This document shows, in pieces, positions 1 to 12,207 of a stretch of 64,000 nt of DNA. Within the stretch, counting starts at the first letter, position 1; each line of letters starts with the position of its first letter. The translations under genes were made by a program, and so were the position numbers. The DNA is taken from the NCBI GenBank assembly GCA_903928115.1, contig CAIYPP010000074.1, positions 1 to 64,000 on the forward strand, read 5' to 3'. The notes beneath the pieces are model-generated. The model did not search any database, had not been told where the DNA came from, and worked only from the letters and a program-made list of their open reading frames with translations. Source of the DNA: an uncultured Planctomycetota bacterium. GTDB taxonomy: Bacteria; Planctomycetota; UBA1135; GCA-002686595.

Positions 1-1334
1 CCGCTGTAGGAGTTGGGGTTGCGGCCGTCGAGGGCGAAGCGGTTGTTGAGCTCGATCAGGTGCGCGAGGGCGAGCTTTGGCGTGGCGGACCACTCGAGGA
101 TCTTCTTGCCCCACAGCATGCGCAGGTAGTTGTGAATCGTGCCCTCGCGCAGGAGCTGAGTCTGGGCGGCGTTCCAGACGCGGTCGTGGGTGCGGGCGTG
201 GGCGAGCTGTTCGAGCGAGTAGACGTGCGGGCGCTTGTCGGCGGCGTGCTTGGCGAGCGTGTCGAGCGCGAACTGCGGCAGGGACTCGAAGCGCTCGTAG
301 TCGGGGCGGCGCTCGCAGAACACGTAGCCGAGCTCGCGCCAGGTCACGAGCTCGTCGAGGAAGGACTCGGCGGGCTGGCTCATGTTCCACCAGCCTTCGC
401 GGCGGCCGTGGGCCTTGGGGCCGATGCGCTCGGGCGTCCAGCCTTCGCGCGCGACGAGCTGGCGGAAGATGTCGTGCACCGAGATGTGGCCCCAGTGCAG
501 GTAGGGCGAGAGGCGGCTTGCGACCTCGGGCTCCGGCTGGCTGCGCTTGTCGGCGTAGTCGACGAGCTTGCGATCGAGGAACAGCGTGAGCGCGCGTTGC
601 GCGGCCTGCGCGCCGCCGCGCGTCTCGACCACGCCCACCTCGGAGTCGATCGGGAGCTTCGCCAGTTCTGCGGGCTCTCCGGCGAGCAGCGCCGCGCTCG
701 CCGCGGGCCAGCGCGCAGCGATGTCCTTCGGAATCGCGCCCTTCTTCAGCTTCGAGCCTTGGAGTGCGTCTTCGAGCGGAAACTCCGCGAGGTGCGGCGC
801 GAGCTCCTTTTGGAGAAAGCGCCGGAACGCGTAGGCGGTCGGGAAGTCGCTCGGTGCGGCCTGCAGCGGCAGCAGTCCGTTCGAGTCGACGGCCTCGACG
901 CACGCGGGAGTGCGCGCGGCGAACGACTCGACCATGCGCGGCAGAAAGAAGCACGGGAACTCGTCGGTGACGACCGTGCAGGCGCGCTCCGCGAGCGCCG
1001 CGACGAGTCCCTTGCCCGCGCCCTTCGCGGGCTCCACGTAGGCGTGGTACGCAATGCCGCGCTCGGCGAAGAAAGCCTGATTGTCGCGCATTCCGTCGAG
1101 CGCGAACTTGTGCAGCCGCGCGCTCGCCCAGCGGTAGTCGCAGCGCAGCGCTTCGAGCACGAGGAGCGGCACGCCGAACTGCCGCGCGCGTTCGACGGCG
1201 TGCTGCAGCGCGAAGTTGAAGCGGCCGCGGCGCGCGGACGTCATCCAATAGAGGACGTGGTCCCCCTTGGAGCGCAGAGGACGGCTGTTCTTGGTGGCGA
1301 GGCGCAGCGCGGGAATCGTCGTGGGGGAGCTCAT
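1..1334 (-). CDS. phr: Deoxyribodipyrimidine photolyase, class II (CPD photolyase). The C-terminus runs off the window start.
   Basis: I translated the reverse strand by hand; this gene is absent from the ORF track because there is no stop inside the window. The protein starts MSSPTTIPALRLATKNSRPLRSKGDHVLYWM and includes HNYLRMLWGKKILEWS and FALDGRNPNSYSG, which are class II photolyase signatures. The ATG is at 1334 and overlaps the stop of the upstream UDG gene (ATGA). Confidence 0.85.
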   Translation of the reverse strand, partial: MSSPTTIPALRLATKNSRPLRSKGDHVLYWMTSARRGRFNFALQHAVERARQFGVPLLVLEALRCDYRWASARLHKFALDGMRDNQAFFAERGIAYHAYVEPAKGAGKGLVAALAERACTVVTDEFPCFFLPRMVESFAARTPACVEAVDSNGLLPLQAAPSDFPTAYAFRRFLQKELAPHLAEFPLEDALQGSKLKKGAIPKDIAARWPAASAALLAGEPAELAKLPIDSEVGVVETRGGAQAAQRALTLFLDRKLVDYADKRSQPEPEVASRLSPYLHWGHISVHDIFRQLVAREGWTPERIGPKAHGRREGWWNMSQPAESFLDELVTWRELGYVFCERRPDYERFESLPQFALDTLAKHAADKRPHVYSLEQLAHARTHDRVWNAAQTQLLREGTIHNYLRMLWGKKILEWSATPKLALAHLIELNNRFALDGRNPNSYS

Positions 1335-2032
1335 CGTGCAAGGCTCTTCGTGGCGAGGGCGAGGACGGAGTCGAACATCCGCGGTGTCAGGCGGCCGGTC
1401 TGCGTATTGAGGCGGCTCGGGTGGAAGCTCGCGAGGACTTCGAGTTCCCCGCAGCGATAGCGCGCACCGTGGGCGAAGCGCACGAGCGGCTTGGGTACGT
1501 CGTAGCCTGCGGCTCGCAGCGCGCGCGCCACGGCTCGCCAGCTGTCGGCGCCGAGGCACAGGACCTTCGCGGGCCGCCGCAGCAGCGCGAGCTCGCGTGC
1601 GAGGAAGGGTGCGCAGCGCTCGAACTCGCGCGGGCTGGGCTTGTTGCCCGGCGGCACGCAGCGCACGGCGTTCGAGATACGGGCGCCGCGGAGCGCGAGC
1701 CCGTCGTCGACGCTGCGCGACGTCGGCTGGCTCGCGATGCCGGCGCGCTGCAGCGCGGAAAAGAGGAAATCGCCGGAGCTGTCGCCCGTGAACGGACGGC
1801 CCGTACGGTTGGCGCCGTGCGCGCCCGGCGCGAGCCCGACGATCAGGAGCTCCGCGCGCGCATCGCCGAAGCTCGCGACGCCGCGCGAGTGGTACGGAGT
1901 GCCTCGCCACGCGCGCGGACCGGACTGCGAGCACGCGGAACGCCAGCGCACGAGGCGCGGACAGCGCTCGCACGCGAGCGTGTCCTGCGCGAGTGCTTCG
2001 AGCGAGTCTGTGGCGGCTGGGCGGCGCGGCAT
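1331..2032 (-). CDS. Uracil-DNA glycosylase, family 4 (UdgA-like)
   Basis: 233 aa, starting MPRRP at 2032. Motifs: CERCPRL (4Fe-4S cysteines) and GLAPGAHGANRTGRPFTGDSSGDFL, the family-4 UDG active-site block. The 4-nt stop/start overlap with the photolyase gene suggests translational coupling. Confidence 0.85.
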   Translation of the reverse strand: MPRRPAATDSLEALAQDTLACERCPRLVRWRSACSQSGPRAWRGTPYHSRGVASFGDARAELLIVGLAPGAHGANRTGRPFTGDSSGDFLFSALQRAGIASQPTSRSVDDGLALRGARISNAVRCVPPGNKPSPREFERCAPFLARELALLRRPAKVLCLGADSWRAVARALRAAGYDVPKPLVRFAHGARYRCGELEVLASFHPSRLNTQTGRLTPRMFDSVLALATKSLAR

Positions 2033-2063
2033 CGGGACGCTCCAGCCTACGGCGAGCCGCGCC

Positions 2064-10360: not shown

Positions 10361-11653
10361 ATGAGCACTCCCGCCTTCACCCAGGAAGTCCGCTACGCGC
10401 CCGAGCCGGTGCGCGTCTCGCGCTCGCGTCCCTTCAGCGCGCTCGAGCGCTTCGCGCGCACTCAGCTCTGCCAGCGTCTCGCGGGGATCCGCTGGGGGCG
10501 CCTCGTGCTGCGCGACGCCCTCGGTTCGCAGGTGTTCGGCGGCGCGGAGGGGCCGAGCGCGACCATCGAGGTGCACGACGGCGAGCTGTACCTCGACATC
10601 GCCAAGCAGGGCAGCGTCGGTGCGGGCGAGGCCTACGCGCACGGCGCGTGGTCGACCGACGACCTCACCCACGTGATCCGCATTCTCGTGCGCAATCGCG
10701 ACGTGCTGCAGGGAATGGAGAAGGGCTTCGCGCGACTCGGCAGCTCGGCGCTACGAATTTGGCACTCGCGCCGCGACAACACGCGCGCGGGATCGCGCGA
10801 GAACATCGCGGCGCACTACGACCTCGGCAACGAGTTCTACGAGCTGTGGCTCGACGAGACGATGATGTACTCGTGCGCGGCGTTCGAGCGCGCGGACATG
10901 ACGCTCCACGAAGCGCAGGTCGCGCGCTTGGACCGCATCTGCCGCAAGCTCGATCTCAAGCCGACGGACCACTTGCTCGAGATCGGCACGGGTTGGGGCG
11001 GGATGGCGCTCCATGCGGCGCGGGAGTTCGGCTGCCGCGTGACGACGACGACGATCTCGCGTCGTCAGCACGAAAAGGCGGTCGAGCGCGTGCGCGCGGC
11101 GGGGCTCGAAGACCGCGTGACGGTGCTCTTCGAGGACTACCGCGATCTCCAAGGTCGCTTCGACAAGCTCGTGTCGCTCGAGATGATCGAGGCGGTCGGC
11201 GAGCGCTGGTACGACACGTACTTCACCAAGTGCTCGGATCTGCTCGCGCCGAACGGGCTCATGCTCCTGCAGGCGATCACGATCCGTGACTCGCTCTACG
11301 AGGAGGCTCTGCGCTCGGTCGACTTCATCCAGCGCTTCATCTTCCCCGGCAGCTGCATTCCGTCGACGGCGGCGATCATGGACCGTGTGGCGCGCGTCAC
11401 CGACATGAACCTGTTCCATCTCGAAGACATCGGGCCGCACTATGCGCCGACGCTGCGGATGTGGCGCGAGAACATGGCGCGCAATGCGGAGCAGATTCGC
11501 GCGCTCGGCTACAGCGAAGAGTTCCTGCGCATGTGGGAGTTCTACCTCTGCTACTGCGAGGGCGGCTTCGAGGAGCGCTCGATCCAAGACGTGCAGATGC
11601 TGCTGGCCAAGCCGGAAAATCGGCGCAATCCTCTGCTTCCGAACCTGCGCTGA
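10361..11653 (+). CDS. cfa: Cyclopropane-fatty-acyl-phospholipid synthase family methyltransferase (full-length paralog)
   Basis: 430 aa. NIAAHYDLGNEFYELWLDETMMYSCAAF matches the canonical Cfa block, LLEIGTGWGGMALHAA is the SAM motif, and EFYLCYCEGGFEERSIQDVQMLLAKP is the C-terminal Cfa block. There is an AGGAA SD upstream. Confidence 0.85.
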   Translation: MSTPAFTQEVRYAPEPVRVSRSRPFSALERFARTQLCQRLAGIRWGRLVLRDALGSQVFGGAEGPSATIEVHDGELYLDIAKQGSVGAGEAYAHGAWSTDDLTHVIRILVRNRDVLQGMEKGFARLGSSALRIWHSRRDNTRAGSRENIAAHYDLGNEFYELWLDETMMYSCAAFERADMTLHEAQVARLDRICRKLDLKPTDHLLEIGTGWGGMALHAAREFGCRVTTTTISRRQHEKAVERVRAAGLEDRVTVLFEDYRDLQGRFDKLVSLEMIEAVGERWYDTYFTKCSDLLAPNGLMLLQAITIRDSLYEEALRSVDFIQRFIFPGSCIPSTAAIMDRVARVTDMNLFHLEDIGPHYAPTLRMWRENMARNAEQIRALGYSEEFLRMWEFYLCYCEGGFEERSIQDVQMLLAKPENRRNPLLPNLR

Positions 11654-11664
11654 GGCGAGCTCGC

Positions 11665-12207
11665 GTGAGCAAGCTCACGAACTTCATCGCATTCCAAGTC
11701 TGCTGGTTCGCGTGCGTGCTCGGCGCGGCGAAGGACATGGAGTGGATCGGGCCGCTCTCGGTGGCGCTCTTTCTCGCGTGGTCGCTGACGCTCGTCGCGA
11801 GCGCGAAGCGCGAGCTCACAGCGCTCGCGGCGGCCGCTGTGCTCGGCACGTTCGTCGACACCGTGCAGCTCCAGATGGGCTGGCTCGAGTATCAGGGCGC
11901 TCCGCTCCTCGGGGTGCTCGCGCCGAGTTGGATCGTCGCGCTGTGGGTTGTGTTTGCGATGACCTTCGACAGCTCGCTCGCCTGGCTGACACGGAGGCGC
12001 GCGTGGTTTTCGGCCTTCGGCGCGATCGGTGCGCCGTTTTCGTACTGGGGCGGTGTGAGATTGGGCGCGGTCGAGTTCGGGGACCCGCTCTGGCCCTCGA
12101 TCGCAGGCATTTCCGTGTGCTGGGGCAGCGCCCTGCCGCTCGCGGCGTGGCTGGTCGAGCGGCTTCGGAGAGCTCCGAGCGGGAAAATCGAGGCGCAGCC
12201 TCACTAG
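11665..12207 (+). CDS. DUF2878 family small membrane protein
   Basis: GTG start at 11665, 180 aa, four predicted TM helices. It is the last gene of the lipid cassette, the same position DUF2878 takes in comparable clusters. Confidence 0.6.
   Translation: MSKLTNFIAFQVCWFACVLGAAKDMEWIGPLSVALFLAWSLTLVASAKRELTALAAAAVLGTFVDTVQLQMGWLEYQGAPLLGVLAPSWIVALWVVFAMTFDSSLAWLTRRRAWFSAFGAIGAPFSYWGGVRLGAVEFGDPLWPSIAGISVCWGSALPLAAWLVERLRRAPSGKIEAQPH

Follow-up and report, generated by a model that had tools for sequence, protein, structure and literature searches.

In the dark, the TtCarH tetramer is a repressor seated on tandem direct repeats; it regulates its own gene and acts upstream of photolyase induction through LdrP. 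Its plan, common to class I LitR proteins, joins a winged helix-turn-helix (HTH) to a four-helix bundle with a Wx9EH motif and a Rossmann B12 domain that supplies a histidine as lower ligand (5C8D, 5C8E), and in 5C8E the protein was solved in complex with 26 bp of DNA. The LitR/CarH proteins of class I, which bind B12, have been described mainly as carotenoid regulators; myxobacterial carH, for one, lies with crt genes (PMC9304148). A further protein of solved structure is CtMerR of Chloracidobacterium thermophilum (8JBS, 8JBT), whose B12 domain was shown to bind adenosylcobalamin (AdoCbl), to form tetramers and to undergo photolysis in green light (PMC11796333). That work used a truncated B12 domain and named the target only as "an alternative DNA-binding site", reporting neither operator nor regulon (PMC11796333). 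Here, a regulator of the same plan is described at one end of a 64,000-nucleotide stretch of DNA from an uncultured Planctomycetota bacterium (contig CAIYPP010000074.1, positions 1 to 64,000, hereafter the window). It stands head-to-head with a DNA-repair unit and directly ahead of rudS and a lipid cassette, and the whole probably constitutes a light-response regulon under a CarH-like AdoCbl photoreceptor.

The gene map of positions 1–12207 was reproduced by gene calling on third-position GC together with Pfam, NCBIfam and PDB searches (Table 1). Raw lists of open reading frames (ORFs) are full of spurious frames because the window is ~70% G+C, and third-position GC was used to choose one gene per stretch. 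The epimerase and regulator ATGs (3521 and 3617) are spaced by exactly 95 bp, as a first-pass annotation of this DNA had stated; its gene positions and most of its labels likewise stood. Behind the regulator lie eight genes, which that annotation also listed while counting nine co-directional ones; they overlap or are 4–13 bp apart, except for 82 bp after rudS. The overlaps are an ATGA at udg/phr, 8 nt at litR/rudS and 10 nt at ufaD/ufaO, and in the leftward unit 31 bp separate the epimerase gene from udg. Myxobacterial origin, suggested at first for this high-GC genome, is ruled out: the nearest genome loci all belong to Planctomycetota metagenome-assembled genomes (MAGs), whose regulators are 96–100% identical to this one. 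The locus is real, well conserved and coherent.

Table 1. Features of the locus and of the remainder of the window, with the searches or relations that define them
Feature	Position	Strand	Basis or relation
Class II cyclobutane pyrimidine dimer (CPD) photolyase, 3′ end beyond window edge	3-1334	-	PDB 8OET/2XRY, E 1e-52
Family 5 uracil-DNA glycosylase (UDG; UDGb type), 233 aa	1331-2032	-	PDB 2D3Y
YfcH-type epimerase SDR + DUF1731 + C-terminal domain, 485 aa	2064-3521	-	TIGR01777, 337 bits
Divergent control region, 95 bp	3522-3616	.	between epimerase and regulator ATGs
Candidate core operator	3544-3580	+	repeat family D1
Further same-strand boxes	3585-3628	+	GGACGGTTC (3588), GGACGAACC (3608), GGACGAATTC (3619)
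Regulator, 270 aa	3617-4429	+	Pfam, PDB, AlphaFold
RudS: TudS desulfidase + DUF1722	4422-5396	+	Pfam, 140 and 138 bits
Short GC hairpin	5401-5415	+	directly 3′ of rudS stop
DUF1295 membrane protein, steroid-reductase/ICMT-like fold	5479-6285	+	Pfam, 225 bits
Short CMAS-family S-adenosylmethionine (SAM) methyltransferase, 343 aa	6290-7321	+	CMAS, 139 bits
Membrane Δ9 acyl desaturase, SCD1/DesC type	7335-8297	+	FA_desaturase; PDB 4YMK
UfaD-like flavin adenine dinucleotide (FAD)-dependent fatty-acyl desaturase, amine-oxidase/phytoene-desaturase fold	8310-9596	+	Amino_oxidase, 104 bits; NAD_binding_8
UfaO-like DUF1365 protein	9587-10354	+	PF07103, 263 bits
Long CMAS-family methylase, 430 aa	10361-11653	+	CMAS, 303 bits
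DUF2878 membrane protein, last cassette gene	11665-12207	+	Pfam, 141 bits
corA, 1353-aa TamB-like protein, Omp85/POTRA protein	12218-19398		3′ of cassette
QueA	28170-29330
B12-dependent QueG	33477-34589
B12-binding radical SAM enzyme	41620-43320

The regulator is assembled from a BldC/excisionase-like winged HTH (residues 4–53), a four-helix bundle and a Rossmann B12 domain. Its N-terminal MerR-type winged HTH is recognized by three models, all above the Pfam cut-offs (PF12728 or HTH_17, 49.3 bits; PF13411, 32.7; PF00376, 29.7), and the bundle by B12-binding_2 (PF02607, 30.4 bits; cut-off, 23). The bundle's W113-x9-E123H124, conserved across 34 homologues, lines up with TtCarH W131/E141/H142. 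In the Rossmann domain, the string D158-E-H160-T-L-G163 contains an invariant H160 that aligns to H177, the equivalent residue of TtCarH. Together these elements complete a light-responsive signature, G110RRW113, E123H124, G157DEH160 and G182RSMP186, whose key residues are invariant or nearly so across the 34-sequence alignment of the regulator family. The four motifs concerned, GxxW, EH, GxxH and GxxxP, are those that separated photoactive from non-photoactive B12 domains by experiment (PMC11796333). A search of PDB sequences ranks CtMerR first (8JBS, E 5e-25) and TtCarH next (3.7e-12), identity to the latter being only ~25%. CtMerR is thus the closest solved relative, carrying the same signature motifs and a BldC-like domain ~57% identical over 42 residues. 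An AlphaFold model built with the 34 homologues has a mean pLDDT of 91; its top fold matches are full-length TtCarH with AdoCbl and DNA (5C8E), then CtMerR 8JBS, and its fit to CarH B12 domains reaches a TM score of 0.75. On motifs, predicted fold and a gene neighborhood shared across three phyla, the regulator is likely to be a CarH-type AdoCbl photoreceptor. These same lines of evidence bear out the initial proposal of a B12 photoreceptor wired to a photolyase operon and a lipid cassette as far as the parts are concerned, while light control itself is inferred by analogy.

What the regulator reads on DNA may be set by its first domain, which departs from CarH. Searched alone, this domain matches only CtMerR and BldC (6AMA, 8e-8), not CarH, and it is ~50% identical to BldC of Streptomyces (6AMA/6AMK). 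R23 and H39 align with Arg30 and His46, through which BldC contacts DNA, and both are invariant in the family alignment. The protein is not a BldC family member, scoring 57.2 bits against the cut-off of 77 for NF033787 with its domain fused to a sensor, whereas BldC is a 68-residue stand-alone domain. Conceivably, the domain nonetheless acts on DNA as BldC does, which multimerizes head-to-tail on AT-rich direct repeats, AATTxxxxC (PMC5859096). The BldC site GATTTCCCC is present verbatim at 3570–3578; BldC repeats are 9 bp apart, compared with 10–11 and ~21 bp in the window.

The 95-bp region between the divergent genes holds a compact array of same-strand repeats. At its core, GGGACGATTTC occurs twice (3544 and 3565), 21 bp apart, with a degenerate AGAGATTTTGG in between, and three tandem GATTT units at 3549, 3559 and 3570 are spaced by 10–11 bp. 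GGACGAWTTC has three exact copies in 64 kb, all within 84 bp of each other (0.29 expected), and the triple-GATTT pattern is unique in 64 kb (0 expected). One-mismatch copies of GGACGAWTTC occur at chance level in the window (9 found, 7 expected), and those at 5204, 33605, 36858, 41562, 46274 and 59579 were accordingly dropped as regulon members. When seven related intergenic regions were aligned, full conservation was confined to the pair of GACG..TT boxes, a CT.GA element a little further downstream and the ATG-proximal box; all seven loci hold GACG..TT and GACGATT without change. In a second clade, whose spacer is otherwise unalignable, a CGGATTT box keeps its 53-bp distance to the box on the litR ATG, and a GG(A/T/G)CGAAT box abuts the epimerase start codon. 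That ATG-proximal box, GGACGAATTC, sits on codons 1–4 of the regulator gene. When 3617–3628 was compared with the matching position in L001–L013 and L051, the first codons, ATG GAC GAA TT(C/T), proved to be conserved as DNA sequence in 12 of the 13 Planctomycetota loci. The same 12 loci use GAA as codon 3, although GAA makes up only 19% of Glu codons in window genes (GAG, 81%). This preference against codon bias points to selection on the DNA sequence itself, and the start codons appear to double as a candidate binding box.

Several results temper the assignment of this array as the operator. Because the patterns were derived from this very region, their uniqueness counts are not an independent discovery; support of an independent kind is provided by the conservation in relatives. 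Tested across the family, ahead of 46 regulator genes, [CG]GA[AT][AT]T boxes showed no significant 10–11/21-bp spacing (5 vs. 2.9±1.6), and k-mer enrichment against a coding background was confounded by the AT-richness of intergenic DNA. Since the family-wide tests gave no support, the proposal draws on just the two Planctomycetota clades. Nor did a scan of 3300–3800 find a consensus sigma-70 promoter; a conserved CTTGAG at 3578–3583 could be a −35 element. The GACGAWTT/GATTT direct-repeat array is accordingly put forward as a proposed operator for this lineage. Elsewhere in the family, Anaeromyxobacteraceae MAGs (L014–L037) have a conserved block just upstream of the regulator start codon, e.g., GACGAATCCGTTGAAATGAATCGCCAAATTCGACAATTCC, which on the opposite strand reads as 8–9-bp tandem GAATT/GATTC units much like BldC sites. 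In L035, TTGACA followed by three ACCGACCAA-type repeats lies upstream of the regulator gene.

The leftward unit opens with the gene for an NAD-dependent, epimerase-type SDR. The first-pass label, epimerase-SRPBCC, stands in its first half (TIGR01777); the second is weak on the protein's own sequence, whose 165-aa C-terminal domain matches Polyketide_cyc at E 0.1, and gains support through homologues of that domain (E 1e-25 to 1e-55) that carry PF03364/PF10604 (Polyketide_cyc, Polyketide_cyc2) and are named SRPBCC. The glycosylase next to it had been assigned to family 4, which is ruled out by a far better match to a family 5 structure. Over its whole length it aligns to T. thermophilus TTUDGB (2D3Y) at E 1.7e-52 and 181 bits, against 2e-6 for 1UI0 of family 4, whose structures reach only 1e-6 to 1e-9 overall. 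Pfam UDG gives 108 bits, and the family 4 model TIGR00758 59.3 bits, below its cut-off of 125.3. The protein has a CxxC iron–sulfur motif, GLAPGAHGANRTGRPFTGD and HPSRLNTQTG; it shares the GLAPGAHG-NRTGRPFTGD and H-S-R-N-TQTGRLT motifs with 2D3Y, and reads GLAPG where family 4 has GEAPG. 2D3Y itself belongs to family 5 (UDGb). This UDG is an accessory gene, found only in the window locus, L013, L001 and L005 (4 genomes). The photolyase, whose start ATG overlaps the UDG stop within ATGA (1334–1331), was correctly called class II at the outset: its best structures are 2XRY, 8OET and 3UMV, at E 1e-43 to 1e-52 versus 1e-7 for cryptochromes. TIGR00591 (phr2) is its best NCBIfam model, at 288 bits below the cut-off of 550 for a protein truncated by the window edge. 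On the minus strand of 3–2063, one frame stays open for 687 codons, running across the UDG gene (in another frame) into the photolyase; this is a high-GC artifact with an Arg-rich false translation.

A scan of a genome collection with the regulator alignment gave 44 loci, of which the closest (54–100% regulator identity) all come from Planctomycetota MAGs, including several lake genomes (Erken, Pavin, Mendota). The arrangement recurs in 11 further Planctomycetota loci: it is whole in L003–L005, L007–L011 and L051, with no detectable photolyase in L010, while L001 and L002 show it up to the ends of their contigs. L012 retains the rightward unit without the desaturase and the divergent operon. 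Over this set of loci, L012 included, regulator identity goes down to about 53%. Among distant members of the regulator clade (~40–50% identity), parts of the same gene set reappear in other placements. A divergent MT-UfaD-UfaO-CMAS...DUF1295 array lies beside the regulator in an Anaeromyxobacteraceae genome (L045), and divergent UfaD-UfaO-CMAS genes do so in three Myxococcota MAGs and one labelled only Proteobacteria (L019, L027, L028, L033). Another planctomycete (L050) has the cassette directly behind the regulator, without rudS, while a Terriglobales MAG of the Acidobacteriota (L047) has a divergent CMAS methylase, lipocalin and glutathione peroxidase. Further neighbors are folE-rudS in an uncultured delta proteobacterium (L049) and a YfcH-type epimerase in six Nannocystis/Kofleria-type loci, and on a metagenome contig with two regulator paralogues (L052) one of them adjoins a class II photolyase. 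An informative deviation is the Planctomycetota MAG M_DeepCast_65m_m2_061 (L006, 1–6536), which reads litR-rudS-corA-tamB without the cassette. In its regulator (P0005), DRRG replaces GRRW and GQ replaces EH, while the cobalt-ligand His is retained; the 172 bp upstream of the regulator, as far as the contig end, are rich in G and contain neither boxes nor an epimerase gene, and codons 2–3 are GAT GAG. This looks like a co-loss of sensor pocket, operator and target genes.

On the L052 contig (7001–12629), 2 kb separate the two paralogous B12 regulators. Behind the first lies a 533-aa protein that matches neither Pfam nor any protein of the window; behind the second come a class II photolyase homologue, 52% identical to the photolyase of the window, and then a CbiX cobalt chelatase. 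At L053 (7001–10420), a regulator homologue precedes a cNMP-binding (CRP/FNR-like) protein and a GMC oxidoreductase, the regulator and the cNMP-binding protein resembling the litR-ldrP pair of Thermus.

Behind the regulator, rudS overlaps its stop codon by 8 nt. The product fuses PF04463 (TudS/DUF523) to PF08349 (DUF1722), domains already recognized in the first-pass annotation, and this pair now defines the RudS family, characterized as a tRNA 4-thiouridine (s4U) desulfidase (PMC11417400). Downstream of it, the otherwise tight spacing is broken. The 82-bp gap (5397–5478) contains the GC hairpin, of 5–6 bp, which is kept in four relatives with compensatory changes at two pairs, and which may serve as a partial terminator or stabilize the RNA, setting litR-rudS apart from the lipid genes. 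Gap and hairpin mean that the lipid genes could have their own promoter, a point that counts against a single light-controlled unit. Taken further, the photoreceptor might control only itself, rudS and the leftward unit, with the cassette from 5479 onward transcribed separately, for instance under an extracytoplasmic function (ECF) sigma factor answering singlet oxygen as in Rhodobacter, so that adjacency would reflect shared function. The same lipid genes do belong to the sigmaE-ChrR regulon of alpha- and gamma-proteobacteria, and L006, keeping litR-rudS without the cassette, demonstrates that the modules are separable. We nevertheless regard this arrangement as unlikely. The placements in L050, L045, L019, L027, L028 and L033, and that of the CMAS gene in L047, bring the cassette repeatedly to the regulator's own promoter region, in L050 even without an intervening rudS. 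The hairpin of the window has no T-run, and a terminator scan of 1–19500 yielded sites no more numerous than in shuffled sequence. Finally, no ECF sigma/ChrR pair adjoins the cluster, though the sigmaE promoter motif was not searched for; an unrelated ECF sigma lies 20 kb off at 34814–35797.

The cassette ends with DUF2878, a boundary marked by a convergent gene directly after it in L051 and by the absence of the entire cassette from L006. For the same reasons, L051 with its convergent gene and L006 with rudS joined directly to corA, corA and tamB were ruled out as members of the light unit. These genes and omp85 follow with gaps of 6–10 bp and a 1-nt overlap at tamB/omp85, and are kept as neighbors in some relatives.

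Called at first a lipid-remodelling cassette with a desaturase, a description whose genes are right and whose label is too vague, this gene set matches the furan fatty acid pathway (UfaD-UfaO-methylase), to which a second methylase and a Δ9 desaturase are added. At its center, the amine oxidase, DUF1365 and CMAS genes equal RSP1091-1089 and RPA2571-2569 in domains and order, and for those genes a pathway to methylated furan fatty acids has been reconstituted (PMC7380195). The ufaD-like gene, directly upstream of the ufaO-like gene with a 10-nt overlap, occupies the position of RSP1091/RPA2571; the DUF1365 protein corresponds to UfaO, the O2-dependent furan-ring former (PMC7380195); and the 430-aa CMAS gene stands in the position of UfaM (RPA2569)/RSP1089, either methylase being a candidate for the UfaM role. 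The 343-aa CMAS protein is a candidate second fatty-acyl or furan-ring methylase with a FufM-like role. It is 26% identical to its 430-aa paralogue, and the pair is kept in L045, L050 and L051; UfaM and the furan methylase FufM are likewise 26% identical (PMC7380195), a coincidence that is suggestive, not diagnostic. DUF1295, the first cassette gene, accompanies the cassette in the same three loci. The desaturase matches mouse SCD1 (4YMK) at E 4e-26 and has the His boxes HRYFSH, HREHH and HNNHH of Δ9 desaturases; absent from L012, L045 and L050, it is a lineage-specific insertion.

The product could instead be another lipid, whether cyclopropane, mid-chain methyl-branched or conjugated-diene, with DUF1365 and the amine oxidase performing other chemistry. 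Characterized proteins number just two for UfaO and two for UfaD, all alpha-proteobacterial; a Δ9 desaturase implies a substrate other than cis-vaccenate; and DUF1295 and DUF2878 have no known role. Weighing against a furan product, too, is RSP1089, the positional equivalent of the 430-aa gene, which is dispensable for furan lipid synthesis in R. sphaeroides (PMC7380195). Set against these points, the identity of domain set and order to the reconstituted pathway, together with a methylase pair that mirrors UfaM/FufM in its distance, renders a different lipid improbable, and a furan fatty acid remains the predicted product.

Light sensing by the regulator has its own difficulties. B12-binding (PF02310) scores 30.1 bits (E 4.6e-7), slightly under its gathering score of 32.1, so that of the Pfam matches anticipated for 3617–4429 by the first-pass annotation PF13411 was confirmed outright and PF02310 fell just short, with B12-binding_2 found in addition. 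The CarH equivalog NF052513 gives 55.6 bits against a cut-off of 400, far too low for the regulator to be a CarH orthologue. More specifically, TtCarH His132, which forms the bis-His light state, is replaced by Glu114, next to W113, and CtMerR, with Arg there, also has no equivalent of it. CarH with H132A showed no monomerization, and CtMerR required more light (PMC11796333). Because Glu114 stands in place of His132, the light-driven release step may differ from that of CarH or be weaker. Counting against the regulon as a whole, about half of the sampled regulator homologues have unrelated neighbors. It is very improbable, all the same, that the regulator is no light sensor here, instead binding cobalamin or nothing and reporting B12 status or another signal, or acting constitutively: the shortfall of PF02310, the loss of His132, the lower light efficiency of CtMerR, its closest studied relative, relative to CarH and the drift of adenosyl-pocket motifs in L006 would fit, but the full signature is present and conserved and every neighboring function concerns light damage, namely photolyase, s4U removal, furan lipids and, in relatives, folE. 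Elsewhere, the window encodes QueG (epoxyqueuosine reductase) and a B12-binding radical SAM enzyme, and the organism therefore uses cobalamin. Rfam and tRNA scans of the window returned no matches, hence no cobalamin riboswitch in it. A 1743-aa ORF with coding-type GC3 spans 47063–52294.

By analogy with TtCarH and CtMerR, a mechanism for the light-response regulon can be sketched. In the dark, the AdoCbl-loaded regulator would oligomerize, and its BldC-like winged-helix domains would line up head-to-tail on the same-strand GACGAWTT/GATTT repeats of the 95-bp region, blocking both divergent promoters. UV-to-green light would break the Co–C bond, the DNA-bound assembly would be lost, and both units would be transcribed. 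The leftward unit would then provide CPD photoreactivation by the photolyase, base excision by the family 5 UDG in some strains, and the SDR-SRPBCC protein. The rightward unit would renew the repressor and supply RudS, which would strip photosensitive s4U, a UVA chromophore, from tRNA. In the membrane, the Δ9 desaturase would furnish a cis-monoene on phospholipids, a CMAS-type methylase would convert it to a methyl-trans-monoene, UfaD would produce a conjugated diene, and UfaO would insert O2 so that the furan ring closes; the second methylase may yield a dimethyl furan. The resulting lipids would serve as sacrificial scavengers of singlet oxygen and radicals.

A broader reading can be entertained tentatively, with slightly more doubt than belief. 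CtMerR-type regulators, joining a BldC-like DNA-binding domain to an AdoCbl domain, may be a distinct branch of B12 photoreceptors, whose original role in Planctomycetota, Myxococcota and Acidobacteriota would lie in light-gated furan fatty acid synthesis, photolyase expression and tRNA s4U removal, not in carotenoid control, and would be exerted through head-to-tail binding to GACGAWTT/GATTT; the planctomycete lineage would have recruited the Δ9 desaturase to it, with light triggering a de novo supply of unsaturated substrate for the furan pathway. B12 photoreceptors have been studied mainly as carotenoid switches and optogenetic tools, and the locus and its relatives give the CtMerR branch a candidate operator and a coherent set of target genes. 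They suggest that furan fatty acid synthesis may be switched on directly by light, not only via sigmaE-ChrR and singlet oxygen, and would add Planctomycetota to the range of the furan pathway, equipped there with a desaturase of its own and an additional methylase. They also bring RudS together with the UDG of family 5 and the class II photolyase in a single putative light-damage module.

All parts of this module are known, and it is not categorically new. TtCarH, the best full-length fold match, targets carotenoid genes, whereas the candidate targets here are furan-lipid, RudS and photolyase genes; full-text searches of one literature collection found no paper joining a B12-binding LitR/CarH to furan fatty acid genes. 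In Vibrio cholerae, the MerR-like VCA0056 is co-transcribed with phr and required together with ChrR for the blue-light response, and a cyclopropane fatty acid synthase-like gene is light-induced (PMC5241685); VCA0056 is a class IV LitR without a B12 domain, and the lipid genes are not adjacent. The sigmaE-ChrR regulon with the UfaM/UfaD/UfaO pathway of Rhodobacter sphaeroides and Rhodopseudomonas palustris has the same gene order, UfaD, UfaO and CMAS followed by a small protein of DUF2878-like size, and the same presumed product and protective role (PMC7380195). Its control, by contrast, is an ECF sigma/anti-sigma pair that senses singlet oxygen; desaturase and RudS are missing from it, and photolyase is encoded elsewhere. 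Closest in content are the class II LitR clusters of P. putida and P. mendocina (PplR1, PmlR1), in which a MerR/LitR dark repressor accompanies phrB, RudS, an SDR, an FAD-dependent oxidoreductase and ufaM, and whose genes are light-inducible by experiment (PMC9758184). LitR proteins of other classes thus already run a similar regulon, phrB-litR-rudS-ufaM, in Pseudomonas (PMC9758184), and of the novelty first claimed for wiring this gene set to a light regulator, what stands is the B12 type. The class II LitR of Pseudomonas lacks the Rossmann B12 domain and relies on a separate light-oxygen-voltage (LOV) photoreceptor, whereas the sensor of the window appears built-in and B12-based, and its cluster is further set apart by a photolyase of class II, a UDG of family 5, the Δ9 desaturase and the additional methylase.

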